From NCBI GenBank assembly GCA_001821395.1, contig MHLM01000014.1, forward strand, positions 128,001 to 192,000: 64,000 nucleotides of DNA. The letters run 5' to 3'. This DNA is from Candidatus Lloydbacteria bacterium RIFCSPHIGHO2_02_FULL_50_18 (GTDB taxonomy: Bacteria; Patescibacteriota; Minisyncoccia; Phycocordibacterales; UBA6899). Below are positions 1,653 through 62,199 of this stretch, one piece after another. How positions within the stretch are numbered: position 1 is the first letter of the stretch; every line of letters starts with the position of its first letter. A program made the translations under genes and the position numbers. The notes under the pieces are model-generated. The model ran no database searches. It was not told the origin of the DNA and worked only from the letters and a program-made list of their open reading frames with translations.

Positions 1653-3929
1653 ATGCGATTAAAGAGATTGGAACTCTTTGGTTTTAAGTCTTTTGGAAAA
1701 AGGGCGGTTTTGGAATTCAATTCTCAGATCACTTCGATCGTCGGACCGAACGGCTCGGGTAAATCGAATGTCGCTGAGGGGATCCGATTTGTACTCGGTG
1801 AACAGTCGATGAAATCGATGCGCGGAAAGCGCGGTGAGGACCTCATCTTTAACGGCTCGCAAACGACGGGTCGCGCGAATCGCGCGAATGTTACTATCGT
1901 GTTCGACAATTCAAAGCGTGAATTTCCGCTTGATTTTGATGAAGTTTCTATCGCGCGCGAGGTGTATCGCGACGGCACGAATCAATATTTCATCAACGGA
2001 TCACAGGTGCGCCTCAAGGATGTTTTTGAGCTGCTGGCCTCCGTGCATATCGGAGCATCCGGGCATCATATGATCTCGCAAGGGGAAGCCGACCGTATCT
2101 TGAATGCCAATCCGAAAGAACGCCGCGAAATGCTTGAGGACGCGCTCGGTCTCAAGATCTACCAGTACAAACGTGCGGAGAGTGAACGTCGGCTTTTGAA
2201 GACGGAGGAGAACATGAAAGAGGCAGAGACACTGCGTCGCGAGATCGCTCCGCATCTTCGGTTCTTGAAAAAACAAGTAGAAAAGATCAACGAAGGAAGG
2301 GAATTGCGTGAGCGGTTGATCGGTCTGTATCGAGAGTATCTGAAGCGTGAAGAGATGTATTGTGAGTATAAAACAGGGGACATCGCGGGCAGAAAACACG
2401 TTCCGGCCGGTGAGCTCGCCGATCTCAATATCAAGATCGAGCATGCGCGCGGAGAGCTTGCAAAAGAAAGCGCGGGGGATGAAAAAAGCCAGCGATTGCT
2501 CGACGTCGAATCTCGGCTCCGTGGTGCGCGTGCGCGTCACGATGAGCTTTCACGCACGCTCGGCCGCGTTGAAGGCATGATCGAATATGAGGAGAAACAG
2601 CTGCGCAAAAAGCAGGAGTCGTTCGCACACCAGGAAGATGTTCCTATTCGATTAGGGGAAGTTGAGGAGCTTGAGAGTACTATCGCACAGGAGCTGTCGA
2701 ATGCGCAGGGCTCCGATGACATCAATTACATCAAGGGCGCGTTGAATCGCATCAGGGATACAGTCCGAGGATTCATTGCCCATCATAAAGCCGAGGCTGG
2801 ACAAAAGACATTGACGGATGCGGATTATCTCGAGGTACATGTCCTGCGTGAGGAAAAGGCAAAAGTTGATGAGGCGCTCCGAGGAGTAGCGGAGGAATCA
2901 AGGGCAATGGAAGGAGAGTATCAGGCGGTGAAGTCGGAGATCGACCAAGAAAAAGAGCATTCGCGAGATACTGAGCGCGCACTTTTTGAGATGATGTCGC
3001 GCCGCGGGGAGCTCCAGGGCACGCTAGATCGCATGCGCAACGAGGAAGAGAATCTTGCGCGTGAATCCCGCCGTCTTGCAGAAGAATTGAATGAGGCCGG
3101 GGTGCTCCTTGGTCGTTCCGTCCTCGAGTATTCGGACATACCCGTCACGCTAGAGGAAGTACGCGGCGAGTCGCGTGATGCGCAGGAGGCGCGCAGGCGC
3201 GAATTAGAGCGAGGGAAGATCAGGCTCGAAGATATTGGAGCTCAGGGGGGCGAAGATGCAGAGAAGGAGTACACCGATACTATTGAGCGTGATGTTTATC
3301 TTGAAAAGGAGATCGCAGACCTCGTGCAAACTCAGCAGTCTCTCTATCAGCTCATTGCAGAGCTGAATGTGAAGCTCGACACGGAATTCAAGTCCGGTGT
3401 GAAGAAGATCAATCATCAGTTCGGGGACTTCTTCCGATTGATGTTCGGCGGGGGTGTTGCCGAACTCTTCATTGTGAAGATCGAAAAACGGAAGCGTCGC
3501 GATACCGATCTCGACCTCAGTGATATCCCCGGTGGTGCCGATTCTGAGATTGCCGAAGGAGAAGAAGAGGATGAGGAGGGTATCGATATCGCCGTGTCCC
3601 TTCCGCACAAGAAGATCAAGGGGCTCCAGATGCTCTCGGGTGGAGAGCGCGCACTCACGTCCATTGCACTCCTTTTCGCCATCTCTCAGGTCAATCCACC
3701 GCCATTCATGGTGCTTGATGAGACTGACGCCGCACTTGATGAGGCCAATAGCCACAAATACGGCGATATGATCGAAAATCTCGCAAAGCTCTCGCAGCTG
3801 ATGGTCATCACACATAATCGCGAAACGATGAGTCGTGCGGGGGTGCTGTATGGGATCACAATGGGGACGGATGCGGTCTCAAAGGTACTTTCTATCTCCT
3901 TTGAAGACGCCGCCGCAGTCGCGAAATAG
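1653..3929 (+). CDS. smc: SMC-family chromosome-partition ATPase (short form, 758 aa)
   Basis: N-terminal Walker A GPNGSGKSN, long coiled-coil middle, C-terminal ABC signature LSGGERALTSIALLFA and Walker B MVLDETDAALDEAN. It is much shorter than the canonical ~1180-aa SMC. Confidence 0.8.
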   Translation: MRLKRLELFGFKSFGKRAVLEFNSQITSIVGPNGSGKSNVAEGIRFVLGEQSMKSMRGKRGEDLIFNGSQTTGRANRANVTIVFDNSKREFPLDFDEVSIAREVYRDGTNQYFINGSQVRLKDVFELLASVHIGASGHHMISQGEADRILNANPKERREMLEDALGLKIYQYKRAESERRLLKTEENMKEAETLRREIAPHLRFLKKQVEKINEGRELRERLIGLYREYLKREEMYCEYKTGDIAGRKHVPAGELADLNIKIEHARGELAKESAGDEKSQRLLDVESRLRGARARHDELSRTLGRVEGMIEYEEKQLRKKQESFAHQEDVPIRLGEVEELESTIAQELSNAQGSDDINYIKGALNRIRDTVRGFIAHHKAEAGQKTLTDADYLEVHVLREEKAKVDEALRGVAEESRAMEGEYQAVKSEIDQEKEHSRDTERALFEMMSRRGELQGTLDRMRNEEENLARESRRLAEELNEAGVLLGRSVLEYSDIPVTLEEVRGESRDAQEARRRELERGKIRLEDIGAQGGEDAEKEYTDTIERDVYLEKEIADLVQTQQSLYQLIAELNVKLDTEFKSGVKKINHQFGDFFRLMFGGGVAELFIVKIEKRKRRDTDLDLSDIPGGADSEIAEGEEEDEEGIDIAVSLPHKKIKGLQMLSGGERALTSIALLFAISQVNPPPFMVLDETDAALDEANSHKYGDMIENLAKLSQLMVITHNRETMSRAGVLYGITMGTDAVSKVLSISFEDAAAVAK

Positions 3930-3930
3930 C

Positions 3931-4153
3931 AATTTGGGCGCACTGCATTGTCGGAAACTTACGAGGCTCATTCACCGTACTCCGAAGTACGCCTCATTTC
4001 GCTTCGCGTTTCCTTCGCGCATTGCATCCCCAATTGTTATTTCGCTCAATGTCACTTCCTCGTCGCCTTGGACTGCGACCAAAAAATTCATCGAGCGACC
4101 AATTTTTCTTAGCAGTATTCTGCTTTAGAAAAATGGAAGTACTCTCCGTGGTG
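3931..4153. repeat. intergenic repeat family A, copy 1 (left module aatttgggcgcaYtgc...cgtacNNNNgtacg hairpin...cgcaYtgcatccccaa; right module gcgaccaatttttctta...ttagaaaaatggaagtactctccgtggtg)
   Basis: It shares conserved blocks with copies at 9964-10095, 27526-27645, 31300-31470 and 36923-37007. All copies lie in the 3' intergenic regions of + strand genes. Confidence 0.6.
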
Positions 4154-4307
4154 CATCCAAAAATAAAAGTCGTGCAATTGGGTGCGCTTTTTGTTGCACC
4201 CATTCGACTTTCCTGGTGTATAATTACTATATTATTCAGTAGTATGAAAAGCCATGTGTAACATCTGTAAATCAAGCTGTGCGCTATCAAGGATAGGATA
4301 TTATTTG

Positions 4308-8408: not shown

Positions 8409-8468
8409 CTAAGACGCAGTTAAAACCATAAAACATCTTCTGTCAACCCCAGATTTAATCTGATTTTA

Positions 8469-8497
8469 TTGACCAATCGGAGGGCGTCTGCTAGTAT
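8469..8497 (+). promoter_or_regulatory. candidate sigma-70 promoter TTGACC-17-TAGTAT placed about 7 nt before the rpsP ATG (possible leaderless transcript)
   Basis: ttgacc at 8469-8474, a 17-bp spacer, tagtat at 8492-8497, and the rpsP ATG at 8505. Confidence 0.35.
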
Positions 8498-8504
8498 CTT
8501 TCCC

Positions 8505-8951
8505 ATGTTAGCAATACGACTTAAGCGCGTTGGACGCAAGAACGACCCATCATTCCGCATCATTGTGCAGGATCATCGCCGTTCTCCAAAAAAGACGAGG
8601 GGTGTGGCGGAGTTTGTCGGATCTTACGATGCACGCAAGGGCACTCCGCAAATCGATGCAGAGCGAGTGAAGTATTGGATCGGTCAGGGTGCACAGCCAT
8701 CCGATACCGTGCACAACCTCTTGGTTGATGCGAAAATCATCCCGGGAAAGAAGGTCAATGCGCTTAATGCAAAGACACCCGTCGTGAAAGAGGCTCCTAA
8801 GGTAGAACCAAAGAAGGTCGCTCCCGTAGCAGCAGCTCCCGTCGCCGAGGTGAAAGCCGAAGAGCCGGCACCCGTAGCAGAGGTGGCAGCACCGGTTGCC
8901 GAAGTGAAGGCTGAAGAAGCGACACCAGCGGCAGAAACTCCGGTCGCATAG
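8505..8951 (+). CDS. rpsP: 30S ribosomal protein S16 with Ala/Pro/Val/Glu/Lys low-complexity C-terminal extension
   Basis: MLAIRLKRVGRKNDPSFRIIVQDHRRSPKKTRGVAEFVGSYDARK...VKYWIGQGAQPSDTV is the canonical S16. The tail carries the repeats (A)PVAEVKAEE. The ATG at 8505 is preferred over the TTG at 8469. Confidence 0.9.
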   Translation: MLAIRLKRVGRKNDPSFRIIVQDHRRSPKKTRGVAEFVGSYDARKGTPQIDAERVKYWIGQGAQPSDTVHNLLVDAKIIPGKKVNALNAKTPVVKEAPKVEPKKVAPVAAAPVAEVKAEEPAPVAEVAAPVAEVKAEEATPAAETPVA

Positions 8952-9603: not shown

Positions 9604-9963
9604 ATGGCTGAAACATACAGCGACAAAGAATTTCTTGAGTTTCTCGTAAAGTCTCTCGTCGACAAACCGGAGAAGGTTGTAGTTGATCGACGTACGGATG
9701 ACATGGGAGTACTTCTTACTCTTGATATCGACCCTGAGGACATGGGGAAGGTCATCGGCAGAATGGGGAATACCGCAAAGGCGATCCGCACACTGCTTCG
9801 CGTTGTTGGAATGAAGAATAATGCACGCGTCAATCTGAAGATCAATGAGCCTGAGGGCGGAAAGCGCGCACCAAGCGCAGGAGGTGAGGGCTTGGGGGTG
9901 AGTATGGCGGGGGGAGTATTGCATCAAGACGTTGATGACGTCATCGCCGACTTGAAAGCATAG
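9604..9963 (+). CDS. khpA: KH-domain RNA-binding protein (KhpA/YlqC, UPF0109) with C-terminal Gly-rich extension
   Basis: FLVKSLVDKPEKVVVD...MGKVIGRMGNTAKAIRTLLRVVG carries the KH GxxG motif. The gene sits between rpsP and trmD as in many bacteria. Confidence 0.8.
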   Translation: MAETYSDKEFLEFLVKSLVDKPEKVVVDRRTDDMGVLLTLDIDPEDMGKVIGRMGNTAKAIRTLLRVVGMKNNARVNLKINEPEGGKRAPSAGGEGLGVSMAGGVLHQDVDDVIADLKA

Positions 9964-10095
9964 CGACACTCATTGTCGGGTAATTTCTTCGTTGCCTGCG
10001 TCGTGAGTCCGGTGAACGTACTCAGCGTACGTCCGCGCGGACATCACTTCCTTGTCGCCTCGAACTTCCCTCGACGCTGAGCGTCTCCGTTTGAC
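9964..10095. repeat. intergenic repeat family A, copy 2 (cattgtcgg...acgtactcagcgtacgt hairpin...cacttccttgtcgcctcg)
   Basis: It shares the cattgtcgg and cacttcctYgtcgcctYg blocks and the cgtac/gtacg hairpin with copy 1. Confidence 0.5.
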
Positions 10096-10103: not shown

Positions 10104-10137
10104 AAAAAAACCACTCGCACATGCGGGTGGTTTTTTG
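10104..10137 (+). terminator. rho-independent terminator (aaaaaaaccactcgcacatgcgggtggttttttg)
   Basis: Hairpin flanked by A- and T-runs. Confidence 0.7.
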
Positions 10138-11373: not shown

Positions 11374-12075
11374 ATGAGATTTCATATCATAAGTTTATTT
11401 CCCGACACGATGCGCGCCTATCTCGACGATTCCATCATTGGTCGTGCGCAGGAGGACAAAAAATTGAGCATCAAATACTATAATCCGCGCGCATTCACGA
11501 AGGATAAGCACGCGCGGGTCGACAAGCGTCCCTACGGAGGGGGACCCGGTATGGTGCTTGAGGCGGAGCCGTATTTGAAAGCCGCCGCAAAGGCACGCGG
11601 CAAGAAGACGAGGCGCGTGAAAGTGGTTTTTTTTGCAACAGACGGCAAGCAATTCACGAATGTCATGGCGCGCGATTGGGCAAAGAAGTACGACGATATC
11701 ATTTTCCTTTCCGGACGCTACGAGGGTATCGATGCCCGTGCGCCGAAGATATTGAAAGCGGAAAAGATCTCCGTCGGGCCGTTCGTTCTCACTGGAGGGG
11801 AGATACCCTCAATGATCGTGATTGATGCGGTTGCGCGTCAGATCCCTGGAGTCCTCGGCTCGTTTGAATCGGTTGAAGAAGAGCGCGTCGCAAGCCCCGA
11901 TGTCTACACCCGCCCCGAGATATTGGAATGGAAAAAAAGAAAACATAAGGTCCCCAAAGTTCTCCTCGGCGGGAATCACAAAGAGATTGAAAAGTGGAAG
12001 TTAGATCAACTTGCCCGAACCATAACCGTGCGAAGCACCAGAAAAAGTGAGTCCGCGAGCGACAACGCCAAATAG
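11374..12075 (+). CDS. trmD: tRNA (guanine37-N1)-methyltransferase TrmD
   Basis: MRFHIISLFPDTMRAYLDDSIIGRAQ...DDYPYGGGPGMVL...LSGRYEGIDAR is the SPOUT TrmD pattern. It has a short C-terminal extension. Confidence 0.9.
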   Translation: MRFHIISLFPDTMRAYLDDSIIGRAQEDKKLSIKYYNPRAFTKDKHARVDKRPYGGGPGMVLEAEPYLKAAAKARGKKTRRVKVVFFATDGKQFTNVMARDWAKKYDDIIFLSGRYEGIDARAPKILKAEKISVGPFVLTGGEIPSMIVIDAVARQIPGVLGSFESVEEERVASPDVYTRPEILEWKKRKHKVPKVLLGGNHKEIEKWKLDQLARTITVRSTRKSESASDNAK

Positions 12076-12131
12076 CGTCCGCTTGCGACAACGCCAGATA
12101 GCGTCTTCGAGCGACAACGCCCAATAGTATT
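12052..12131. repeat. three tandem direct repeats of about 27 bp (gcgacaacgccaaatagcgtc-like) overlapping the trmD stop
   Basis: gagcgacaacgccaaatagcgtcc / gcttgcgacaacgccagatagcgtctt / cgagcgacaacgcccaatagtattgac, immediately followed by a TTGACA -35-like box. Confidence 0.6.
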
Positions 12132-17263: not shown

Positions 17264-17361
17264 TATTTGTTCATTATCGCGCTTCACGGCGCGATTTTTT
17301 GTTTGACGATCAATATTTGATATAAAAAAAGTCCCGGAGCATCTGTGCCAGGACGAGTTCG

Positions 17362-17919
17362 TTATCGTAAAATTTTTCGCACTCGCCTGATCAGTCGGCT
17401 GACTTCGCGGGGTGTGAGGATGCTGAAATCGTGACCCTCGATCTGTTGTATCTTTGGACCATTCTCGCCATAAGAATTGACTTTGATCTTTTGCCCGCGG
17501 GCTATGACGTACATCGCATGTTTCGCAACGTAAGCAATTCCCGGAGCCGATTCGGGCAATCCGTTTGTTTGATGATCCCAGTATGACTTACCCTCGGAAA
17601 GCACGATGAACAGTTCATCGGCTTCGAGTTCTGCCGCGATGCACACCATGTTTTCAACCGAGAGATCACCCCAACCCAGTTTTTCGCCGGCCTTGTTGTA
17701 CCAGCCGCTATTGTGGGTCATTTTTCCTCGGACGCACATTTGTCCGAAATGAAGGCCGAACAGCGTACTTTCTTGGCCGAATTCTCTGCCGTACATACCT
17801 TTCGTGAGCTGCGTCATGTCTCGATCCTTTTGTTTGTACTTATAGTCTGAAGGCAATTTCTCATTAACGAACCCATAAGTCAACCTGTACGGGTAATATG
17901 TTTTTTCATTGAATATCAA
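17362..17919 (-). CDS. hypothetical protein (185 aa)
   Basis: ORF with a consistent codon composition; no motif recognised. Confidence 0.5.
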   Translation of the reverse strand: MIFNEKTYYPYRLTYGFVNEKLPSDYKYKQKDRDMTQLTKGMYGREFGQESTLFGLHFGQMCVRGKMTHNSGWYNKAGEKLGWGDLSVENMVCIAAELEADELFIVLSEGKSYWDHQTNGLPESAPGIAYVAKHAMYVIARGQKIKVNSYGENGPKIQQIEGHDFSILTPREVSRLIRRVRKILR

Positions 17920-20276: not shown

Positions 20277-20679
20277 ATCTATACTACTTTCACTAACGGC
20301 CTGATTGAGTTATTGGCGGATAACCCTTAGTACAGCCACTCTATAGCGCATGCTGCGCATTTATTTATAAGTTCGAGGAATATAAGACACTAACTCTGTA
20401 AACGAGTCCGTGTTTTTGCGTCTATTTCCTAGTGTAGCGAGCGAAATGAGAATGTCCGCATTCACATTTCCGAGCGAACGACGGAAAAAAGAGGGTATTC
20501 CGATTAATTGTACTTTCCGTATTTTAGTTCACGCGTTAGGACTTTCGGAAATGGATGCACCACAAAGAGTATTTCCATTTTTCTAAGCGGAGTACCGCAA
20601 AGAAAAATTGGTCAAATTCTCGGCGTGAGAAGTTCGCCATTTACGTATGTCCTATATTTAATAGTTTACTTATTCGATT

Positions 20680-23600: not shown

Positions 23601-23850
23601 AGGACAGCGTTTCGGAGAAATGGAAGTGTGGGCGCTCCAGGGTTATGGTGCCGCTCATATCCTTCGCGAAATGTTGACCGTGAAGTCCGACGATATTCTC
23701 GGACGCTCCGCCGCGTTTGACGCGATCGTCAAAGGCAAGAACATCCGTGAGCCGAATCTCCCCGCAACGTTCAATGTCTTGCTCAATTCGCTTCGCGGAT
23801 TGTCCCTCGATATCGACCTGATGCACATTAAGGATGAAGAGACCAATTAA
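20680..23850 (+). CDS. rpoB: DNA-directed RNA polymerase beta subunit (short, 1056 aa)
   Basis: Conserved RpoB blocks throughout, for example GRYKVNKKLG-like, NMQRQA, GGQRFGEMEVWAL and the C-terminal region. Confidence 0.95.
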   Translation: MEAINKKFFGRYKESLAEMPNLVEMQKRSYDWLVEEGLKELFKEFSPISDYSKKKFDLEFIGFELSPARFDEHFARENKVSYETPLRARVRLTNKTLGTVKEQEVFMADFPIATDRGTFVVNGVERVVVPQLARSFGIFFTAQELKAGRFFGAKVIPARGAWIEIETDSDEVIWVKIDRKRKFPATSLLRVFGQCGDAEILKAFEGDPDAKRYIEKTLAKDPAKTLEDSYIEVYRRLRDGDVTSITNARELIDAMFARERYDLSPVGRVRFNRRFGKAMTPVALETRVLTFDDLTTTVAYVAKLNHTKGAEEDDIDHLGSRRVRFVGEMLQAKLRVGMTQMKRNIQDRMSTVETDTILPINFVSPRPLQARLKEFFTTNQLSQLMSQGNVLDEVEHLRTTSAMGPGGLTKERAGLEVRDVHPSHYGRLCPIHTPEGPNIGLVLRLATYARTNAFGVIETPYVKVDDGHITGKIEYLNALEEEQFIIAHAAVPYGADMMLESRVEARVKGNPGIVNRAQVDYIDVATNQAFSTATSSIPFLEHDDANRALMGSNMQRQAEPLVSPTAPIVATGMEGRIARDSGRVVIAESDGVIKEVDARHIVFKDNKGNEKEYKLLNYIMTNNANCYHQRPIVSVGEKIKKGDVLADTSTSDRGEMALGQNLLVAFMSWGGANYEDAIILSERLVRESVLTSIHIEKFVVNVRDTKLGPEVTTPDIPNVGEVKLKDLDYEGIVRIGAEVRPGDILVGKITPKGEATLTPEERLLRSIFGEKARDVKDTSLRMEHGKRGRVIGVKVFSREKGDNLESGIIKRIYLEIAQLRNISVGDKLAGRHGNKGVISKILPLEEMPFQEDGTPIDVILTPLGVPSRMNLGQIFELHLGLAAHKHGYQAVTQPFLGVTEEEIRAELKSAGYREDGKMKLYDGRTGESFEQEISVGYMYILKLHHMVEDKIHMRSIGPYSLITQQPLGGKAQGGGQRFGEMEVWALQGYGAAHILREMLTVKSDDILGRSAAFDAIVKGKNIREPNLPATFNVLLNSLRGLSLDIDLMHIKDEETN

Positions 23851-26800
23851 TAGCCATACCATTCATATGAATAATCCATCAACAGATTTCAACGCGATCG
23901 GCATCAAGCTTGCTTCGCCGGAGCGCATCAAGGAGTGGTCGCATGGCGAGGTCACCAAGCCTGAAACGATCAACTATCGTACCCAGCGCTCAGAGCGCGG
24001 AGGACTGTTCGACGAGCGCATTTTTGGACCTGAAAAGGACTTCGAGTGCTACTGCGGTAAGTACAAAGGCATCCGCTACAAGGGGATCATCTGTGAGAAG
24101 TGTGGCGTTGAGATCACGCGCGCGATCGTGCGCCGTGACCGCATGGGTCACATCGAACTCGCAGCCCCCGTGTCGCATATTTGGTTCTTGCGCGGCATCC
24201 CGTCACGCATTGGACTCCTGCTCAATCTTCCTGTTGCTGAGCTTGAGAAGGTCATCTATTTCGCCGCATACGTCGTCACAAAGGTGGACGAGCGCGAGAA
24301 AGAGGAGCTTTTGAAACAGCTCGATCAGGAATATAAATCGAAAGTGAAGTCACTTGAGGCAAAGGGAGCGAAGGACAAGATGAAGGAACTCCTGACCGCC
24401 GCAAAGAAAGAGATCGACGGAATCACCGTCGGGCTTATTCTGGACGAAATGACGTACCACAAGTACTCACTCAAATATTCGTCCGCTTTCGAAGCCGGCA
24501 TCGGTGCCGAAGCGGTCTACGCAATGTTCCAGAAACTTGATCTCAAGAAACTTCAGACACACATGCTGACGACGCTTGAGAAAGCCGGAGCCGTTGAGCG
24601 CGTGAAGCTCTACAAGCGACTGTCGCTCGTGAAGGCCATGTTGCGCTCGGGAGTTCGTCCTGAGTGGATGTTCCTGACCGCGATCCCGGTCATTCCTCCA
24701 GGAATGCGCCCGATGGTCGCACTTGAAGGAGGCCGTCACGCGACATCCGACGTCAACGACCTGTACCGACGCGTCATCAATCGGAACAACCGCTTGAAGA
24801 AATTGATCGAGATCGACGCCCCTGAGGTCATCTTGCGCAATGAAAAACGCATCTTGCAGGAAGCAGTAGACGCGCTCATCGACAACTCGATCCGTCACGG
24901 TTCGACCTCTGCGGCGATGAGTCAGACACAGCGCCGTCAGTTGAAGTCACTTGCCGACACACTCAAGGGAAAGGGAGGACTCTTCCGCCAGAACTTGCTT
25001 GGAAAGCGCGTCGACTACTCGGGACGTTCCGTCATCGTCGTTGGCCCGGACCTGAAATTGAATCAGTGCGGACTTCCGAAGCACATGGCACTTGAACTGT
25101 TCCGCCCATTCGTCATCGCAAAGCTCTTGGATCAGGGTCTCGCATTCAACATCCGCGGTGCCAATCGTCTCATCGACGAGGGTATTCCCGAGGTGTGGGG
25201 AAATCTTGAGGATGTCATCAAGGGCAAATATGTGCTCTTGAACCGTGCTCCGACCCTTCACCGCCTCGGTATCCAAGCATTCAATCCGACGCTGATCGAA
25301 GGCAACGCCATCCAGGTGCATCCGCTCGTCTGTTCCGCGTTCAACGCAGACTTCGACGGAGACCAAATGGCCGTTCACGTTCCATTGTCCGATGAAGCAC
25401 AGGCTGAAGCAAAGAACCTCATGGCATCGAACAAGAATCTCTTGAAGCCGGGCTCAGGAGATCCTGTGGTGAATCCCGGACAAGACATCGTGCTCGGTTG
25501 CTACTGGATGACCAAGATCGTCGAAGGCGAGGCGGGCGAGGGCAAGATCTTTGCTACTCCGAACGCATCGATCACCGCATATGACTTTGGTGTCGTCGGT
25601 TTCCGCTCCAAGATCAAGGTCATGGGAACGGATACGGATAAATACAAGCAGTTCGAAGGGAAGCCTTTCGAGACGACCGTCGGACGCTTGCTCTTCAACT
25701 CCGTGCTTCCGTCAGATTTTCCTTTCATCAACAAAGTGGTCACGAAGAAAGATCTCGCCAACATGGTCGACGACCTCATCACGCGTTACGGTATCGACGG
25801 TACTCCTCAGGCACTCGATAAGATCAAAGCATTTGGATACAAATACGTCACCAAGTCCGGTGTGACCTGGTCACTGTCCGACGTGAAGGTTCCTCCCGAG
25901 AAGAAGGCGATCGTTGCCGCAGCTCGCAAAGAAGAACTTGGAGTCATGGAAAACTACGAAGAGGGACTCCTCTCCGCAGATGAGAAATATCGCAAGGTCA
26001 TCGAGATCTGGACACGTGTGCAGAATGATATCGAAAAGGTGGTGCCGAACGGATTGCCACTCAACGGTCCCGTCATGGACATGATCACCTCCGGTGCGCG
26101 TGGTTCCATCAAGCAGGTGTCACTCATGGTCGGCATCAAGGGTCTCACGCAGGGACCGTCAGGCCGTATCATTGACTTCCCGATGGTGCCGTCACTCAAA
26201 GAAGGTCTTACTCCGCTCGAATACTTCATTTCTACCCACGGAGCACGTAAGGGTATGACCGACACCGCACTCAATACCGCAAAGGCAGGGTACCTGACGC
26301 GCCGTCTCGTTGACGTGGCGCAGGACGTTGTCGTCCTCGAAGAAGACTGTGGTGAAAGAGACGGTATCCGTCTCACGAAAGAGAATGCACTTGGTATCGA
26401 GATCACTATGTCGCGAAATTCTCGCGGTCGTGTCCTCGCGAAGGATGCCGTTGCGAACGGAAAGGTCATCTTCAAGAAGGGAAGCCTCCTTGGCCGCGAT
26501 GAAGCGAAATTGATCGAAACGTCGGGTGTTGAAGAGGTCTTCGTTCACTCTCCGCTCGTGTGTAAGACGCTCCGCGGTGTCTGTCAGAAATGCTACGGCA
26601 TGGATCTCGGACGCGGTGTGATGGTCGCACTTGGAGAAACAGTCGGTATCGTCGCCGCGCAGGCCATTGGAGAGCCGGGAACCCAGCTCACGATGCGTAC
26701 CTTCCACGCCGGTGGTGCCGCAGGTGAAGACATTACGATGGGTCTTCCTCGCGTTGAAGATATTTTCGAGCGTCAGACACCGAAGGCGCAGGCCGTCGTG

Positions 26801-27514
26801 TGTAAGATCGACGGAGTCGTTTCCGACATCAAGCACGGTGAAAAGGATGACCTGATCATCGTCGTCTTGGGCGAGGAGTCAAGCAAGAAAGAGAAAGAGG
26901 CAAAGGAAGTCGAGCACTCAGTATCGTTCCGCCGTTCACCGCTCGTCAAAGTTGGCGCGCACGTGAAAGCGGGAGATCTGATCACCGACGGCTATGCCGA
27001 CATCGATGAGCTCTACAAGTTCGGAGGACTCGATCGCGCACAACGCTACATCATCGCCGAGATCAACAAGATCTATGAGACACAAGGAGCATCCATCTCG
27101 CGTAAGCATGTCGAGGTCATCGTGCGCCAGATGTTCTCACGCCGAAAGATCAAGTCGACCGGAGATACGAAATTCTCCATTGGCAACACCGTCGAAGAGT
27201 CGACGCTCAATGTCGAGAATGCACGCGTGAAGGCACAAGGTGGCGAAGAGGCCAAGGGTGAGCAGCTCGTCCTCGGTATCACTGATGTCGCACTCACGAA
27301 GGAGTCTTTCCTCTCGGCAGCATCATTCCAGAACACGTCACGCGTCTTGATCGAAGCAGCAGTCCAAGGTTCTGTCGACAAGCTCTATGGTTTGAAGGAG
27401 AACGTTATCTTGGGTCGCTTGATCCCCGCAGGAACAGGGTTCCATACGAATAGGGTGGAGCCGGAGTATGATCCGGAGGATGATTTGCCTCCACGCGAAA
27501 TAGTCCAAGCGTAA
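23834..27514 (+). CDS. rpoC: DNA-directed RNA polymerase beta' subunit
   Basis: Zn-finger [21 protein letters not shown], the NADFDGD catalytic loop and trigger loop. The track ORF overlaps rpoB by 17 nt; an alternative non-overlapping start is the ATG at 23867 ([18 protein letters not shown]...). Confidence 0.95.
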
Positions 27515-27525
27515 CAATGTCCAGT

Positions 27526-27645
27526 TAGGGCGCATTGCGTCGTTGACTTCGCTCTCCGGTTCGGAGAACTTACTCAAAGTAAGTCCTCGCGAACACGGAG
27601 AGCTTGTCGCCTCGCACTGCATCCCAAACTGACCATTGTTAAAAT
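27526..27645. repeat. intergenic repeat family A, copy 3 (ttagggcgcattgcgtcgttg...acttactcaaagtaagt hairpin...tcgcactgcatcccaaactg)
   Basis: Same terminal blocks as copies 1 and 4. Confidence 0.55.
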
Positions 27646-27763
27646 GCAATGCAGCGCAGTTCGTTCTTTGTTTCAGGGCTCATGAAATAAAATGAAAATT
27701 AAAAAGAAAACACTCAGCAACGTCTCTCCTGTGTGTTTTCTTGCATCCGACCATGGCAACACC

Positions 27764-27883
27764 CGTAGAACAGATAAAAAGGAAGCTTCACAAATTTACC
27801 TGCAGTGCGAGGCGGCAGCGAGGAGCACCCCTGAGGCGTATGAGCGATACGGTGAAGGGGTCGACGTAGCGACAACGAAGCAA
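27764..27883 (+). pseudogene. duplicated 5' end of dnaG (decoy start / duplication remnant)
   Basis: atggcaacacccgtagaacagataaaaagg (MATPVEQIKRK...) is near-identical to the real dnaG start atgccaaccccagtagaacagatcaagtcc ([11 protein letters not shown]...) about 145 nt downstream. It diverges after 11 codons and stops after 39 codons. Confidence 0.5.
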
Positions 27884-27909
27884 TGCAGTAAATTTGTAAG
27901 CGCAAACAT

Positions 27910-29685
27910 ATGCCAACCCCAGTAGAACAGATCAAGTCCCGCTTATCGATAGTCGATGTGGTGGGGTCGTACATCAAGCTTGATAAGGCTGGCGGAAGCT
28001 TTAAGACACTCTGTCCGTTCCACAACGAGAAGTCGCCATCATTCAATGTCAGTCCATCGCGCGATGCGTACTATTGTTTCGGGTGCAATCGTGGGGGAGA
28101 TATCTTCTCATTCGTGCAGGAGATCGAGGGTATCGACTTCGTTGATGCCTTGAAGATACTTGCAACGCGTGCGGGGGTGGAATTAAAGCGCGAGAACATC
28201 GGCGAGCGTACGGTGCGTGAGCGTCTCTATGCCATCATGGATGCGGTCACCGAATTGTATCAAGGCGAACTCGCGAAGAATGCGGAGGTGAGCGCGTATC
28301 TTCTGGGACGCGGGCTCACCGAGAAGACCATTTCAGATTTTCGCATCGGCTACGCTCCGAATGAATGGCGTCTCGCGTACGAACATCTGAAGCGAAAAGG
28401 ATTCACCGATGAGGAGATAGAAAGCGCGGGGCTCACAAAGGCTGTTGAAGGAAAGGGGTATTACGACCGATTCCGCGGAAGGGTCATGTTCCCGATCTTC
28501 GATGCGAACGGTCGCGTCGTGGCGTTCTCGGGCCGCGTCTTTGGGAATCAGAAGAACCAAGATGGGACCGATGTCGCGAAGTACATCAATTCACCGGAGA
28601 CCCCGCTCTATGACAAATCGGCGATACTTTTCGGATATGACCGCGCGAAGATGGATATTCGAAAGCAAAATTTTTGCATCCTCGTCGAGGGGCAGATGGA
28701 CCTCATCATGTCGCATCAGGCGGGGACCACGAACACCGTTGCGGTATCGGGCACGGCGCTCACCGAGCGTCATCTCGCGCTACTCAAGCGGGTGACCGAC
28801 AATCTTGTCTTCGCATTCGATGCCGATGATGCGGGTCTTGCCGCGACGGGTCGTGCGTTCCAGATGGCACTTGCCCTCGGTATGAATGTCCGCGTTGCGG
28901 CCATCCCGGACGGGAAAGACCCCGCAGATTATATTTTGAAGAATGCGGAAGAGAAACCGGAAGCCTGGGCAGAGGTCATTGCGAGTTCGAAGCACATCAT
29001 CGACTTCTATCTTTCGTCACTCGCAGGGAAGGGGTATGACCCACGCGATTATCGCGAGGAGGTCGAGAAAAAAGTCCTTCCTCTCATTCTCGCAATGCAG
29101 TCGAAGATCGAGCAGGCGCATTTCATCGTCGAAGTCGCACGAAAGCTCGGAGTTGCCGAGAATGCCGTCTGGGAAGAGGTCAAGCGTCTCAAGTTTCAGG
29201 GTGGTGCGATCACGCACAGTGTGACCCCCCAGGGCGGAGAGGATCGGAGGGACGAGCTACCGCGAGGGAACATAAAGAGCAGACGTCAAGTTGCCGAGGA
29301 GGAAATAATCAGTATTCTTCTCTGGCAGGAGACCCATAAGGAGCCCGCCATCAATGTTCCCGTTATTCGCAGGTCTTATGAGGAGCGCATTGCGCGATAC
29401 GCCATCTCGGGCATGAGGCCGGATGATGACCAGACGCGCATTCTCATCATCAAAGCCGAGCACACGTACGAGCATGGACCAGGGCTTGAAGTCGCCATCG
29501 AAGAGATGCTCGACACACTCGAAGCCGAAGTATTGAAAGAGATGCAGGCGGAACTGTTAAAAAAGATCCATGAGTCCGAAGGAAGAGGGGACAAAGAAGA
29601 AACGAAAAAATATTTACAACAATACCAGGAAGTGACTCCCCGATTAATAGCGATAGAGGATAGGAAGTTAAAGCGGAGTATATGA
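27910..29685 (+). CDS. dnaG: DNA primase
   Basis: CHC2 zinc finger [30 protein letters not shown] and TOPRIM motifs EGQMDLI and DADDAG. Confidence 0.9.
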
Positions 29686-29686: not shown

Positions 29687-31207
29687 TTGAGAGGTGAGTG
29701 GATGAAAGCAAACAAATTTTATATTATTAACAACAACTATCGTATGGCAACCAAGAAACCCGTGAAGACTGCTCCGAAGAAGAAGGTCGCAAAGCCCGTC
29801 AAGCCTGCCCGCGCAGGCGGGAAGGCAGTTGCAAAGCCCGCACCAAAAAAGCCTGCACGGGTAACGGCTAAGGCGCAGAAGGTGACGCTCGCGAAGCCCG
29901 CAAAAAAGGCCGGGAAGCCTGCGAAGAAAAAGAAGAAGAACACGGGAACCAAACCGGGAAGCGCAAACACGCGCAACGCAAAGAATGCCAAAGCGAAGAA
30001 GGAGCTGAAGGCGCATCCAAAACCCGAAACGGACGAGAAGCCAAAGAAGCTCACGGCCTCCGAGAAGAAGGCGCTCGCCAAGAAAGAGCAGCTCGCACCG
30101 CCCCCAAAGAAGACGATGACCAAGGAGCGCAAAGCCTTGGAGCATAAGTTGACCACCCTCATCACCCGTGGCCGCGATCGCGGTTTCATCACCTTCGACG
30201 AGATCCTGCGCGTGTTCCCGGAGATCGAGAACAATCTCGACTTCCTGGAAGAGGTCTACGATCGGATGGGCGTCATGGGCGTCGACATCCTCGAGTCGGG
30301 CGGCTTGCTTGATGTGGTGACCGAAGACGAGACTCCGCACCACGGCGCATCAAAGAAATATCTGACGACAAAGTCCTCGCCATACGACTCGACGCAGATG
30401 TATCTCCGCGAGATTGGTCAGTATCCGCTGCTTTCCGCACGCGACGAGCGCGAGCTTGCACAGCGCATTCAGGCGAGCGATCCTGAGGCAAAGAATCTCC
30501 TCGCACGCGCCAACCTTCGCCTTGTGGTCTCCGTTGCCAAGAAATACGTCGGTCGCTCACCCGACCTCACACTGCTTGACCTCATCCAGGAGGGGAATCT
30601 CGGTCTTTTCCGTGCCGTCGATAAGTTCGACTGGTCGAAGGGCTACAAGTTCTCGACCTATGCTACATGGTGGATCCGTCAGGCCATCACCCGCGCCTTG
30701 GCCGACCAGTCCCGCACCATCCGTATCCCGGTCCATATGGTGGAGACCATCGCGAAGTATAAGCAGGTCGTCCGCCGCCTGACTCAGGACCTGGGTCGCG
30801 AGCCGATGGCCGAAGAGGTCTCGACCGAAATGGGTATCGACATCGAGCGCGTCCGCATCATTGAGAACATCGACCAGGATACCGTTTCCCTCGAGAAGCC
30901 GATTGGTGATGACGAAGACAAGTCCACCCTCGGTGAATTCATCGCTGATGAGAAGATCCTTTCACCCGACGCAGAGTCTTCCCGCCGTATCCTTAGCGAT
31001 CAGGTGGGGGAGATACTTGGAGATCTCAGCCCAAAGGAGAGGAAGATTCTTGAAATGCGGCATGGGCTATTGGACGGTGTAACGCACACTCTCGAAGAAG
31101 TCGGGAAAGAGTTTGGGGTTACGCGTGAACGTATTAGACAGATCGAGGCCAAGGCCCACGAGAAGATCCGCCAGCACGCGAACATCAACAAACTGCGAAG
31201 CTACTAA
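29687..31207 (+). CDS. rpoD: RNA polymerase principal sigma factor (sigma-70 family) with Lys/Ala/Pro-rich histone-H1-like N-terminal region
   Basis: Region 2 ([27 protein letters not shown]), region 3 and region 4 ([15 protein letters not shown]...[23 protein letters not shown]). About 130 N-terminal residues are AKP/KK repeats. It is adjacent to dnaG (MMS-operon order). Confidence 0.9.
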
Positions 31208-31211: not shown

Positions 31212-31293
31212 AACAACAAAAAACGGGGGTGCTAAGGTCCGACCTTAAGAATTTTAAAAGGTCGGACCTTGGAGAAACTGCACCCCCGTTTTT
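31212..31293 (+). terminator. compound terminator (outer stem aaaaaacgggggtgc...gcacccccgttttttg enclosing inner hairpin ggtccgacc...ggtcggacc)
   Basis: Nested perfect hairpins with a T-run, immediately after rpoD. Confidence 0.7.
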
Positions 31294-31299
31294 TGCTGT

Positions 31300-31470
31300 G
31301 GCTCCGCAGTTAGTTATGCCGTGCATGTCGTATCTAGGACGCGTAATTTGGGCGCATTGCTTTGTTGTCATCGGAACGAACCCCGCTCATCGTACCAGAG
31401 TACGCCTCGGGAGGTATCGTCCCTCGACGTCTCGCACTGCATCCCCAATTACGCGTCCAAAATATGACCG
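31300..31470. repeat. intergenic repeat family A, copy 4 (aatttgggcgcattgc...cgtaccagagtacg hairpin...tcgcactgcatccccaattacgcg)
   Basis: Same terminal blocks as copies 1 and 3. Confidence 0.55.
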
Positions 31471-34929: not shown

Positions 34930-34956
34930 AATTTCCCGACTGCAGGAAGCATAAAT

Positions 34957-35022
34957 TTGGAAGTACTCTTTGTGGTGATTGATTTCTGAAACGCGTGGTC
35001 AAATTTGCAAAGTCCTGATGGG
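34957..35022 (+). repeat. intergenic repeat family B, copy 1 (ggaagtactctttgtggtg-attgatttc-...tggtcaaatttgcaaagtcctgatggg) followed by a terminator
   Basis: Related copies at 35700-35744 and 37405-37468. The gaagtactctYYgtggt block also occurs at 4136-4153, 36990-37007 and 38860-38878. Confidence 0.6.
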
Positions 35023-36922: not shown

Positions 36923-37007
36923 GGTTCACTTCGCTCGCCAGAGGAGTCAGCGACCAATTTTTCTTAACGGTACTCCGTCTTAGAAAAATGAAGTACTCTC
37001 CGTGGTA
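36923..37007 (+). repeat. intergenic repeat family A right module, copy 5 (ggttcacttcgctcgcc...gcgaccaatttttcttaacggtactccgtcttagaaaaatgaagtactctccgtggta)
   Basis: Near-identical to 4080-4153. Confidence 0.6.
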
Positions 37008-37032
37008 AAATAATTCCTTCCTAATTCTATTC

Positions 37033-41494: not shown

Positions 41495-44400
41495 ATGCAT
41501 ATATTTTTCAAATCATTGGTAGTGGGTGCGCTCTCCCTCTCTATACCATTTTTTGTCTCAGCAGAGGAAATACAACCAATTGTACCAGTATCTCAAATAC
41601 TCACAGATACGAATGAGATGAAGCCTATCGTGTTAGCCACTGTCAATCTTCAGAACGCCACCTCCACCCAAGAAGGACACACTTTCACTATCTCCTTCGA
41701 TCTGACAAATCGCGTGGGTGTCCAGCCTGGAGTGAAATATAGCGTAGTACTTATTAAGGAAACAGCTGTTGGGCAGACGATCGTAGATGAGCACGTATAT
41801 GACGAAACGATCAATCTGGGTGAAAATAGTTCTGTTCATAAAGTGGTCAATTACGCGCCCCCAACGAACATAGTGGGAGAGTACCTCCTCTTTATTTCTA
41901 GTGAGAACACAAGTGGATTTCCATTTGGACAAGCGACACTTGGAAAGGTGATCCTCAAGAGGAGTGATGCAGCTCAAAACCCTATTGTTATTGATACCGT
42001 AAGTTGCTATCTCACCGTAGAAGGGGAAAAAGATCAGCCTCACTATGCGCCTCGCCAGGGAGTCGATATCTCGATCGTTGAAAAATTACAAAGCAATTGT
42101 ATCGTAGAAAATACCTCGAATGTTCCAACTACCGCCACTCCTTCTTTTGTCACTCGCACCCGTTCCAATTTTGGTGAGATAGTATCCACGCAAGGTGGTG
42201 ATATGAACGCTGTTATATTTGCGCCGAATGAAAAAAAGACAATAGTAACATCTCTTCCAATATCGCTTACTCCACAATCTTACAATGTAAATCTTAAATA
42301 TGGAGCAACGAGTAATGAGATCTCCTACCACTATGTGATACAGGGCGCAGGCGGGACGATACAGAACATTCTTTTGGACAAAGATGCGTACGTCAAAGGG
42401 GAGACCGCAAATATTTCATTCATGTGGTCGCCTTCTGCCGATGGGTTCCCATACTCTCGTCAGGGGGCAAGTACTCAATTAACAAGTCCTTCCTTTGCTA
42501 TTTCGCTTGTTGATGAAACGGGAAATTCTTGTGCCAACTCCTTTAATCAGCCTCTATTGAGTGATGATATTCTTGTCCAAGCAAAGATAGCTATTATCTC
42601 TTCTTGTATTCATCCAAGAGCGAATGTGACGCTTGCCGATGCGAAGTTGGGGGTATTGGCACAAATGTCTTTTGAAACGGCCACGACGCCATCCCCATCA
42701 ATTCCGCAAAAAGAAACAAATACAAAAAACATCCTTGCGGTGATGCTGGTTATCCTTCTATCGGTGATATTTGCTTTTTTGATCTATCGTAATAAAAAGG
42801 TTCACTCTCTTCCCGTTGGCCCGCTTGTACTTCTCTTCGTGATCGGGTTCATGTTCACTCATGCGGAGATTGCGAGAGCGGATACGTTTTATACCGGATT
42901 TACTGGTACTACTCTTGTGAACGTATCGCTTAACAAGACTTCGTATGCCCCGGGGGAGCCGATGACAATAACTGGGTCAATAACCGTTGCTGGTTGTGCA
43001 AACTCAGGAGATTGGTATCTTCTTAAATACGGTGTCGATCTAGCTGTGGGCCCCTTTACCGGAGCATACCTCATTAGTCAGCGAATCGCTGGGGGGAGCA
43101 CTATTTTTTCTTCAGCCACTGTACCTGCCCCGCTGTTGGCAGGAAGTCATAGAGTCAATTTTCTTACTACGACAGGTTGGGTTGTCAGCAAATCTTATTT
43201 CTTACCTTTCACTGTTAATACTCCTTCTTGTACTGGCGCGACTCCCTGCGGTACTCCGGGTTCTTGCTTCGCAAAATCCGGCTGCAATAACGTCTGTGGC
43301 TCTACCGCCGTCAACGACTGTGCGGGTACCTGCGGAGGAGGCGCCGTAGACTACAATGGTGCAGTTGCAGGCTGTGGTTTCCCTGCCTGTACTGGAGCGA
43401 CTCCCTGCGGTACTCCGGGTTCTTGCTTCGCAAAATCCGGTTGTGATAACGTCTGCGGCTCTACCGCCGTCAACGACTGTGCAGGTACCTGTGGAGGAAG
43501 AGCTACCGACTACAATGGTGCAGTTGCAGGCTGTGGCGGACCACTTTCCATCACCGCAAACCCTGTTGCACCGATCACGCTTCCCACCACGACATTCACC
43601 TCTACGTATTCACTTACGAACGGTACGTCCGCGAACACGAATTGTCGTTTGCTTGATAATGCAAGTAATCCGCTCACCGGATATACTCCGTGCTCGGGGA
43701 GTATCGCCTACAACACTCCTGCTTCACCCGGTGCGTATGGTTATAATGTCCAAGCATTTAAGTCCTTGACCGGTGAGATCAAGACAAGCGCATTTACCGT
43801 GACGGTGAATGGTGCTGGCTGTTCCGCTACAACGATCGAGAACTGTGCACTTCCCGCAACCGCGACCGGAGGAAATGCGGGGAGTTGTAATAGCGGATAC
43901 GTCGGTTCCTGTAATTTCTCGTGTATGAACCGCGTATGGTCCTCGAATTCAAACTCCTGTACATTGATCCCTGCTCCCATCGTTACCGCCACAATAAACG
44001 GCGCGGCGACCGCATCGATAGGCTCGGGCGCACCATTCACCCTCGCAATGACCTCAAGCGGTGTTGGAGGGGGAACATGTTCATGGAGCCGCTCATCGGT
44101 TGCAAACAATCTCGGAGGAGATTTTGGGTTCGCGGCGATCCCCACAGCGAACGGGGGACCACAACAGTTCAACACCAACAATGTATTCTCCGGATGGAGG
44201 GGCCCAACAAAAGTGACTTGGATATTCAAATGTGACAATGGGTTCGGGCTCTCCACCTCAAGGTCTGTGGAACTCACCATTGCCGCTCCTGTTCCAGCGA
44301 TAACAATCAATCCGATCAATAATCTGCTTTTCGGTGATGTTCCGCTCAATAATACTCGTATTCGGACGTTCACCATCACAAATACCGGAGACATCGGTTC

Positions 44401-61196: not shown

Positions 61197-61240
61197 ATTT
61201 GCCATAGCCAAAAGTCCTTTGATGAGCTCAGGATTTCTGG
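61197..61240 (+). promoter_or_regulatory. conserved 44-nt 5'-UTR stem-loop element, copy 1 (catagccaaaagtcctttgatgagctcaggatttctggctgtg)
   Basis: An identical 44-mer occurs at 62088-62131. It folds as an 8-bp outer stem plus a 6-bp inner stem with an 11-nt loop. A ttgacaaaag -35 box lies at 61133. Confidence 0.55.
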
Positions 61241-61300
61241 CTGTGGCAAATCTCAATTCCGAGAAACCAGAGCAGTGCGACCTCATTTGAGGGAGCAATT

Positions 61301-61909: not shown

Positions 61910-61937
61910 TCCTCGTTTCTCGGGTCTACTTTGTAAC

Positions 61938-62131: not shown

Positions 62132-62199
62132 AACGTAGGCCACAGCTCCACCTCGGATGAGAGGAAAATCTACGCACAATTGAGTGCAAGGAGAATGAT

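Follow-up and report, generated by a model that had tools for sequence, protein, structure and literature searches.

The question raised by this stretch of DNA is what kind of element is repeated beside its genes. The window analysed here comprises 64,000 nucleotides (64 kb) of Candidatus Lloydbacteria bacterium RIFCSPHIGHO2_02_FULL_50_18 (contig MHLM01000014.1, positions 128,001 to 192,000), in which a first-pass annotation, made from the letters alone, had described a modular family of intergenic repeats in the 3' regions of smc, khpA, rpoC and rpoD and upstream of arsR, considered to be either a lineage-specific palindromic or miniature mobile element or a conserved RNA structure of the 3' untranslated region (3'-UTR). 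The principal repeat, here called family A, is a non-coding element of ~120 nt that folds as a single long imperfect hairpin. The family itself, its fold and invariant positions, its distribution, its bias in position and orientation and its turnover between relatives are established directly. As to its nature, we consider it on balance probable that family A is a non-autonomous palindromic repeat, similar in kind to transposable elements of the miniature inverted-repeat type (MITEs), repetitive extragenic palindromes (REPs) or Rickettsia palindromic elements (RPEs), in which a base module is recognised and which persists as a hairpin adjoining stop codons.

A covariance model built from 47 diverse family A copies (R1) was run over the whole window with filters off and returned exactly five significant copies, the next match having E = 0.09. 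These copies, together with a putative remnant of an older one, are as follows.

3923–4043, plus strand: family A copy 1, directly 3' of smc (R1 93 bits; fold z = −3.4)
4046–4083, plus strand: putative remnant of an older family A copy, 3' arm only (TCACTTCCTCGTCGCCTTGGACTGCGACC)
9965–10085, plus strand: family A copy 2, directly 3' of the KhpA-like gene (R1 30 bits, E = 3e-6)
27515–27638, plus strand: family A copy 3, directly 3' of rpoC (R1 74 bits; fold z = −7.3)
27788–27899, minus strand: family A copy 4, antisense, just 5' of dnaG (R1 58 bits)
31337–31458, plus strand: family A copy 5, 3' of rpoD, beyond a separate terminator-like hairpin at 31213–31299 (R1 94 bits)

Because the reverse complements of the window copies score only 7–12 bits with R1, compared with 73–94 bits in the forward direction, the orientation of family A is well defined. 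Related elements are found near the places first reported, and the gene names given there are borne out, for smc, khpA and rpoD (as also for dnaG) by a domain scan and for rpoC by 100% identity of its product to a protein recorded at NCBI for Candidatus Lloydbacteria. The conserved termini are likewise real, CGCAYTGCATCCC occurring three times compared with 0.15 expected, and the 3' terminus is an imperfect inverse of the 5' terminus, with apex hairpins as originally described. Other parts of that description need revision. The segment 36923–37007 gives no family A match with R1 and is really a copy of a second repeat, family B, the A and B modules being independent repeats rather than parts of one modular element. 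The statement that all copies share one orientation overlooked the minus-strand A copy at 27788–27899 and one minus-strand B copy. The block cacttcctYgtcgcctYg at 4054–4071, listed among the shared blocks, belongs to the putative remnant arm and not to the intact copy, and the degenerate trace at 1270–1320 is a resemblance of only 14 nt (AGGCGCATTCGGTTG) that is not significant. A copy does lie 3' of rpoD, but not directly at the stop codon, since a separate long terminator hairpin intervenes.

The individual copies differ in how they adjoin the neighbouring gene. At copy 1, the smc stop TAG (3927–3929) lies within the outer stem, and the segment 4046–4083 behind this intact copy would be the leftover 3' arm of an older one, judging from its similarity to the 3' arm ACATCACTTCCTCGACGCCTCGCACTGCATCC of a copy in the relative L118, for which the nhmmer match is weak (E = 0.42). 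Here and below, L-numbers such as L118 and L092 are labels of loci from other genomes used for comparison. Copy 2 lies just 3' of the stop codon of the KhpA-like gene (9961–9963); its conserved boxes are altered by compensatory double substitutions (GGGTAATTTC / GAACTTCC), and the relative L119 has a matching family A copy (461–584) at its khpA site. At copy 3, the rpoC stop TAA (27512–27514) is base-paired with a TTA that closes the stem on its 3' side, and counterparts at the same position are found in L118, L119 and L120. Copy 4 is devoid of the GG/CC step and of the bulge that are described below, and the outer stem of copy 5 reaches out to 31327–31468, a region that was also detected as an inverted repeat.

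From the outside inwards, the family A hairpin starts with an outer stem of at least 13 bp, the sequence of which varies between copies while the pairing is kept. The conserved base module follows, in which GGCGCAYTGC is paired with CGCAYTGCATCC. It begins with two G-C pairs and a 1×2 bulge (C opposite AT), and continues as a helix of 3 + 3 bp where GCA.TGC pairs with GCA.TGC around a pyrimidine–pyrimidine mismatch, nearly always C opposite T. Above the module there is an asymmetric loop (TTYGTY versus CTC, or TTTGTC versus TTCGC), and then a series of variable inner stems, often with a second small loop (TCAC / CTC), leading to an apical hairpin that is typically CGTAC-N4-6-GTACG. The covariance modelling that the first-pass annotation had proposed as a check gives overwhelming support for this hairpin. 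On 109 model-aligned copies, 89.9% of cells hold standard pairs compared with 61% after shuffling, 27 of the 30 pairs are changed on both sides, and the covariation score is 0.626; shuffled alignments give 0.143, none of 500 attaining the observed value, and sliding the partners by 1–3 columns gives no more than 0.125. Compensated variants occur also within the seemingly invariant boxes, namely GCA/TGC to GAA/TTC or GGA/TCC, TGC/GCA to TTC/GAA, and GG/CC to GA/TC.

The mismatch in the base module is itself a conserved feature. In a metagenome scan that left both mismatch positions open (N), and for which all counts in this text are lower bounds among the matches listed, T/C or C/T was present in 41 of the 43 hairpin-like matches (2 of 16 combinations expected by chance); the matches that are not hairpin-like contain all sixteen base combinations, and all 48 metagenome copies confirmed by the model obey the rule. 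The mismatch is also mostly T/C or C/T in 25 copies that were not chosen by a search pattern, where reading of the rows by eye identified as exceptions one C/C variant, at two loci of the same metagenome-assembled genome (MAG), and one G-C copy. The interior, on the other hand, is dispensable: its length ranges from ~50 to 190 nt, the latter in the Kaiserbacteria copy L063, and in Undibacterium two hairpins take its place. The folded base, being the conserved part, is presumably the part that is recognised. As a side observation, the boxes of every family A copy contain on the minus strand one GCAGTG and one GCAATG, which we take to be the recognition words of BtsI and BsrDI (related nicking/restriction enzymes), possibly a coincidence; the 3' box also contains GGATG.

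The position of family A is closely related to stop codons. A genome scan with the two-box pattern, using one genome per species, identified at least 117 loci, of which ~90 of those listed are true hairpins after a conserved coding match and tandem repeats had been removed by eye. The first box lies 1–35 nt (mostly 12–20) 3' of the stop of a same-strand open reading frame (ORF) in 48 of the 95 pattern matches listed. With the model, 61 of 109 matches have a same-strand ORF stop no more than 25 nt from the element's 5' end, 50 of these at an offset of −9 to +4, and the mirror arrangement is seen in 10 of 109, so that sense copies at the stop of the upstream gene are ~6 times commoner than the mirror arrangement. 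The corresponding figures for the metagenome loci are 22 of 45 stop-adjacent sense copies versus 9 of 44 in mirror arrangement. All three stop codons are used (TAA 27, TAG 23, TGA 11), and in 36 of 60 cases the stop codon is partly or wholly included in the predicted stem, its complement then standing at the element's 3' end, as in TAACAATG...CATTGTTA at rpoC and GAAATAGCAATT...AATTGTTATTTC at smc. For the rpsI copies in two Patescibacteria, the stem holds the last twelve coding bases of the S9 C-terminus (SKR-stop). Because this C-terminus is universally conserved, the 3' arm has been made to match rpsI and not the reverse. Orientation agrees with that of the neighbouring gene and not with replication direction or chromosome arm; at L092, two convergent genes less than 1 kb apart are each followed by a copy, and these copies have opposite orientation. 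The upstream genes are unrelated to each other and include ABC ATPases, thiolase, ftsZ, ahcY, rpsI and kup. The attachment to highly expressed genes that had been suggested is not supported, the upstream genes in other genomes being a mixed set.

Nor is the element lineage-specific, as had been assumed initially, since the same element is found at 60–109 bits (R1) in at least six phyla, and the blocks are kept both in relatives and in other phyla. The carriers among the matches listed include many Patescibacteria (Saccharibacteria, Kaiser-, Lloyd- and Paceibacteria among them), the Comamonadaceae Polaromonas, Rhodoferax, Curvibacter and Hylemonella, and further on the betaproteobacterial side Undibacterium, Methylotenera, Nitrosomonadales and Rhodocyclaceae. 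The same listed matches also include a Woeseiaceae MAG and a near-identical Gammaproteobacteria MAG, Azospirillum (Alphaproteobacteria), Christensenella and other Clostridia, Fibrobacter, a Deferribacterales MAG and Gastranaerophilales (Melainabacteria), and the distribution over phyla is patchy. A locus assigned to Candidatus Kapabacteria (L052) has a Polaromonas-type copy with Polaromonas-like neighbours, and this contig is probably mis-binned. There was no match at gathering score to Rfam 15 in the window, and three copies from three phyla gave only chance-level Rfam matches at E ≤ 10. In the literature, only primers matched the box sequences, and no description turned up when keywords were used to look for an element of this kind in Patescibacteria or adjoining stop codons.

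Turnover can be followed in three relatives that were fetched by RpoC homology, L118 (97% identity), L119 (91%) and L120 (87%), each of which has a copy directly behind the rpoC stop. Between the window and L118, the rpoC coding end is identical and the alignable downstream non-coding sequence is mostly identical in pairwise alignment, yet the interiors of the rpoC copies are only 66% shared, and the L118 rpoC copy is nearer to the khpA copy of the window (76%) than to its rpoC copy. The outer stems at this site are homologous between the two, with compensated differences. At the khpA site, the L119 copy belongs to a different subfamily (64%), and in general the interiors of same-site copies in relatives (64–66%) are no more alike than those of unrelated copies. 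In L119 and L120, additional copies and truncated remnants are present downstream of the first rpoC copy, similar to the situation behind smc in the window, and the newest copy always adjoins the stop codon. The antisense copy 5' of dnaG is present in the window and absent in L118, and the copy behind rpoD is absent in L119, where the adjacent terminator is retained. A comparison of orthologous loci for presence/absence polymorphism, as had been proposed earlier, thus reveals differences at the dnaG 5' site, at the rpoD site and inside dnaG.

The dnaG gene deserves separate mention. Copy 4 is flanked by a diverged direct duplication of 23 nt of the dnaG start (27753–27775 and 27910–27932; ATGGCAACACCCGTAGAACAGAT / ATGCCAACCCCAGTAGAACAGAT). 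The upstream member of this duplication resembles the L118 allele, and DnaG from the functional start begins MPTP, as in L119. Because the upstream start is L118-like and the functional start L119-like, the arrangement suggests recombination that imported foreign DNA at the dnaG start rather than a simple insertion. Inside dnaG, L120 has an antisense in-frame copy (8440–8559) that corresponds to ~40 residues not present in the other three DnaG proteins, and an unrelated Patescibacteria MAG (L092) has an in-frame antisense copy elsewhere in dnaG (854–973), again adding ~40 residues. These are the only two in-gene copies among ~160, both antisense, both in dnaG and from two Patescibacteria lineages. 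Including the window copy at the dnaG 5' end, the association may reflect chance, a hot spot beside rpoC or a link to primase. Stop codons can be dismissed as the cause of the antisense in-gene orientation, because the element can be read through more often in sense than in antisense frames.

Copy number and context vary in other lineages as well. Comamonadaceae of different genera share the element down to its outer stem, but it lies behind thiolase and an ABC ATPase in Polaromonas and behind ahcY in Curvibacter and Hylemonella. In Undibacterium, the element is located within a ~290-bp unit with 33-bp terminal inverted repeats; the hairpin is near one end of this unit at loci L017, L034, L037, L111, L050, L046 and L067, and U. 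terreum has at least four copies of the unit. Several other Patescibacteria loci have two to three family A copies per 8 kb. Head-to-tail arrangements of two or three copies with identical spacers of ~30–40 nt were noted at L030 (3436–3818), L038 (2738–3092), L060 (3244–3489) and L063 (5091–5802), and these are tandem duplications, not CRISPR-like arrays.

The diverged copies, the presence/absence differences, the in-frame copies inside a gene and the strong evidence for the hairpin support a palindromic family resembling REPs or MITEs. If so, family A would spread and turn over at the DNA level, with the folded base module serving as a structure-and-sequence signal for a protein that moves, copies or binds the element, and with the interior above it free to vary. 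Sense copies behind stops would persist; co-transcribed with the gene, they would form a harmless or useful hairpin in the 3'-UTR, whereas sense copies within genes or promoters would be purged by selection, which may account for the preference for stops. The stems would stay paired and grow outward across the stop through arm-to-arm copying (template switching), probably acting on the 3' flank, which is free of constraint. At inverted repeats, this process has been described as creating, homogenising and lengthening arms and as producing apparent compensatory changes in one step (PMC8794818, PMC3820800, PMC13100816). We propose it here because the fast yet paired divergence and the stems that extend over stops fit this known outcome. 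Template-switch quasipalindromes are, however, the result of a mutational process and not a family, and they leave the boxes, the fixed mismatch and the cross-phylum spread unexplained.

Several observations weigh against a mobile palindromic repeat. The check for target-site duplications proposed in the first-pass annotation gave none that could be defined: there is no consistent direct repeat, the flanks being inverted and not direct. Duplication of TA (IS630/Tc1 type) suits the TAA and TAG junctions and fails at TGA junctions, and the inferred empty site would lose the stop at smc, at the L118 rpoC copy and at L061; this candidate was rejected. Among 40 window ORFs, no transposase, recombinase or reverse transcriptase was found with Pfam. 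No neighbour gene is shared within ±3.5 kb of ~90 listed loci, where clustering of 1,626 neighbouring ORFs yielded only Polaromonas synteny and generic ABC ATPases. A long "autonomous" version with the same ends was not found either, as no box pair 0.1–5 kb apart encloses an ORF (~240 loci), and the locus-specific outermost stems are not explained by a simple cut-and-paste unit. Since no family A match was present among 2.9 million viral contigs, 72,556 plasmids or the E. coli genomes, no vector is evident. At the thiolase–hydrolase locus of 12 Polaromonas species, the element is 93–100% identical per 20-nt window compared with 80–90% for the thiolase coding sequence and less than 45% for the spacer beyond the element, which at the sequence level is a signature of strong purifying selection and not of neutrality, and makes a host function plausible too. 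The evidence on which DNA strand folds is in conflict. In 54 of 64 copies the fold of the antisense strand is the more stable one, and A-C combinations outnumber G-T both in the outer stems (A-C/C-A 73 versus 41) and in the model-aligned stems (101 versus 62), so that energies and A-C counts point to the antisense strand. A count on the palindromic alignment is mixed, with sense favoured in the interior and antisense in the outer stem, and a conserved T-G wobble in the ATCC/GCGGT step near the apex exists on the sense strand only and points to that strand.

Among known repeats, RPEs are similar to family A in being palindromes of ~100–150 bp without coding capacity that occur both in intergenic regions and in-frame in genes. 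RPEs inserted in-frame add a hydrophilic peptide (PMC10969869), and in-frame insertion is seen also for family A in DnaG of L120 and L092 (~40 residues). Compared by description only, RPEs do not occur outside Rickettsia and relatives and lie mostly within genes, whereas family A occurs in several phyla, is overwhelmingly located behind stops (2 in-gene copies among ~160) and has a base module with a fixed mismatch. The Correia elements of Neisseria, ERIC of enterobacteria and RUP, BOX and SPRITE of pneumococcus are short, non-autonomous and co-transcribed and have inverted termini (PMC10969869). MITEs of the Correia, ERIC and SPRITE type cluster with or nest in one another and are associated with RNase III or RNase E cleavage or terminator-like effects (PMC10969869); nested copies and remnants are similarly found for family A behind rpoC and smc. 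In size (~120 nt), absence of coding capacity, multiple copies, inverted termini and same-site presence/absence polymorphism, family A corresponds to a MITE. On the other hand, the Correia, ERIC and RUP/BOX/SPRITE families each stay within a genus or family; target duplications (TA or other) and candidate parent insertion sequences (IS) are known for them, and none of these features is seen for family A here. Because no parent IS with a transposase was found (~240 loci and 40 window ORFs) and no target duplication could be defined, family A cannot be filed as a MITE.

REPs and BIMEs resemble family A as extragenic palindromes behind genes, with biased orientation and often near stops, and imperfections in hairpins behind genes are also described for the REP/RAYT system (PMC10969869). 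REPs are, however, 20–40 nt long with a terminal tetranucleotide (GTAG type) and a RAYT gene flanked by REPs, whereas family A is ~120 nt, with no conserved tetranucleotide outside the boxes in the alignment and no RAYT in the sequences examined, whether in the window or in the neighbourhoods of other loci. In REP hairpins, such imperfections are presumably recognised by an HUH enzyme acting on single-stranded DNA. Nothing similar to family A is present in E. coli genomes, where both ERIC and REP occur. Family A is therefore not a REP, the size being wrong and the terminal tetranucleotide missing. The integron attC site is defined by structure, with obligatory unpaired bases, and is located directly 3' of ORFs. 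Family A is similar to attC in forming an imperfect hairpin directly 3' of an ORF in fixed orientation, in being conserved mainly in structure, in its obligatory unpaired bases at the foot of the hairpin, in a terminal structure that varies freely and in its length range. The R''/R' core of attC (RYYYAAC / GTTRRRY) is absent in family A, which has the base GGCGCAYTGC ... GCAYTGCATCC, and family A is scattered over sites behind such genes as rpoC, smc, khpA, rpsI and ftsZ, with no nearby integrase or cassette array. Membership of integron attC or Xer/dif sites was rejected, as only a GCGCAT hexamer or the general architecture is in common.

Three other explanations have to be weighed. It is possible, though rather unlikely in our estimate, that family A is a host-functional structured RNA of the 3'-UTR, in which the base module is bound by a protein or guides cleavage by an RNase (e.g., one cut of RNase III type in the asymmetric loop), thereby setting the stability of the mRNA 3' end or coupling to termination at the sequestered stop, with changes in copies being ordinary duplication and loss. 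The layout, with an asymmetric loop between a lower and an upper stem, is reminiscent of the RNase III processing signals of phage T7. Sense orientation and tight proximity to stop codons agree with such a role, as do the flips of orientation with gene direction within ~1 kb, the three window copies that lie between a stop and a separate terminator and would hence belong to the mature transcript, the Polaromonas element that is more conserved than coding sequence, and the wobble that exists only on the sense strand. The antisense orientation of both in-gene copies, despite the more open sense frames, would also be expected if a sense structure harms the gene. This does not explain the patchy occurrence across phyla and loci behind unrelated upstream genes, and neither the in-frame dnaG copies nor the copy in a 5' region can be 3'-UTR elements, while the rpoD copy lies beyond the terminator; the excess of A-C/C-A in the outer stems and the stabler antisense folds further disfavour a fold of the sense RNA. 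The 3'-UTR alternative of the first-pass annotation thus retains support from the sense/stop-codon bias and from Polaromonas, and is not the reading that we favour. The further suggestion that the element may be a terminator determinant fares worse. Family A copies would then be unusually long intrinsic terminators, possibly bidirectional, that share sequence by descent or convergence, in agreement with their location behind stops and with the 5' A-tract and 3' T-tract present in about half of them, e.g., TAAAACCGCGC...GCGCGGTTTTA in Christensenellales. About half of the copies elsewhere end in T3-5, but the window copies do not have a T-tract, and because separate canonical terminator hairpins adjoin three of these (10107–10134, 27706–27740 and 31213–31299), a terminator role is unlikely. 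Boxes shared across phyla, a fixed mismatch and a bulge are furthermore not needed for termination, and there are copies inside dnaG; we regard this explanation as very improbable.

A site for structure-specific recombination or transposition of single-stranded DNA, similar to attC or to the hairpins of IS200/IS605 and REP, appears improbable to us, if less so than a terminator. One DNA strand would in that case fold, the bulge and the C-T mismatch would mark the strand and the cleavage point for a tyrosine or HUH enzyme, and the interior would be a free "variable terminal structure" that is exchangeable or bears cargo. The conservation of only the hairpin base below an interior of ~50–190 nt or two hairpins is consistent with this, and so are the obligatory imperfections (bulge and fixed mismatch), the attC-like fixed orientation directly 3' of ORFs and the tandem arrays in L030, L038 and L060. 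Same-site interiors differ while the outer stems are homologous, as if exchanged at the boxes, and both the folding energy and the comparison of G-T with A-C counts favour the bottom strand. The attC core sites RYYYAAC/GTTRRRY are, however, absent, the carriers are core genes (rpoC, smc, rpsI, ftsZ) and not cassettes, no integrase or HUH gene was present in the examined neighbourhoods, and there is no conserved tetranucleotide of the GTAG type. Both the host RNA and the attC-like site are compatible with a non-autonomous palindromic repeat and are not mutually exclusive of it.

Family B, the "right-hand module" of the first-pass annotation, is an independent repeat of ~68 nt. The pair of segments on which that module was based (4095–4153 and 36950–37007) is a real repeat, but not part of family A, from which family B is excluded by its own positions and orientations and by its limitation to the closest relative. 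Its copies in the window, and the genes adjoining the family A copies, are listed below.

4091–4159, plus strand: family B copy, a small hairpin with compensated stem (nhmmer E = 8e-24)
20552–20619, minus strand: family B copy, 5' of rpoB (nhmmer E = 1e-21)
34953–34978: partial family B copy, 3' fragment
36945–37012, plus strand: family B copy (nhmmer E = 2e-21)
1653–3929: SMC gene (SMC_N domain)
9604–9963: KhpA-type KH protein gene (KH_KhpA-B domain)
23834–27514: rpoC
27910–29685: dnaG
29687–31207: rpoD

The family B layout is TTTTTCT..GCAG-loop-CTGC..AGAAAAA followed by GGAAGTACTCTCCGTGGTGCATCCA, and the hairpin stems vary yet remain paired (GCAG/CTGC, ACGG/CCGT, GCGG/CCGC). Besides the rpoB site and the 3' fragment, the window copies lie 5' of the ORFs that begin near 37076 and 4417; beyond the window, family B was found only as an orthologous copy upstream of rpoB in the closest relative (L118 6687–6753, minus strand). 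The hairpin at 31213–31299 behind rpoD is a long composite, terminator-like structure in which an inner hairpin nested within an outer stem is flanked by an A-tract and a T-tract. In L119 (~17315–17400), the architecture and loops of this terminator are the same, but each of the two stems consists of a different sequence with full complementarity, a remarkable instance of stems being exchanged between the window and L119 with pairing intact. Other repeats in the window are three tandem 26-nt units directly behind a trmD-like ORF (12051–12127), two 159-nt units within the large ORF 41495–44935 (43223–43536), duplicated flanks of two neighbouring ORFs, each with a terminator-like hairpin (61203–61250 / 62086–62133 and 61929–61992 / 62823–62886), and three occurrences of AAATTTGCAAAGTCCTGATGGGATA in a low-G+C stretch (35001, 35723 and 37446).

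As a rule, interspersed palindromic repeats do not occur beyond one genus or family. What sets family A apart from the known kinds of repeats is a base module conserved across phyla, with a fixed C-T mismatch. The same 25-nt module, with one mismatch and one bulge, is found in Patescibacteria, Comamonadaceae, Christensenellales and Fibrobacter, and its presence in such distant phyla therefore implies either horizontal spread of a tiny element or an unnamed trans-acting partner that these bacteria share. The base module, with its bulge, C-T/C-U mismatch and TTYGTY/CTC loop, might be the recognition site of a protein that spreads horizontally and acts on nucleic acid in folded form, either a structure-specific recombinase or nickase for single-stranded DNA, analogous to IntI at attC, or a dedicated RNA-binding or RNA-processing factor for 3'-UTR hairpins found across phyla, an idea that we consider unlikely. 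If true, it would represent a new element–protein system common to Patescibacteria, Proteobacteria and Firmicutes, and in the case of a recombinase or nickase, an enzyme unrelated to the attC/IntI system that places hairpins behind stops and swaps their interiors. The hundreds of diverged copies, together with the same-site pairs, constitute a natural data set for fast evolution of hairpins with pairing kept, and the covariance model R1 can be used for annotating the element. Because stop codons are wrapped into strong stems, the element is relevant to gene calling, to annotation of operons and 3' ends and to the fate of mRNA in bacteria that have not been cultured. For the Patescibacteria, the implication is that tiny genomes poor in recognised mobile elements are dense in an element that can lengthen even the essential DnaG.

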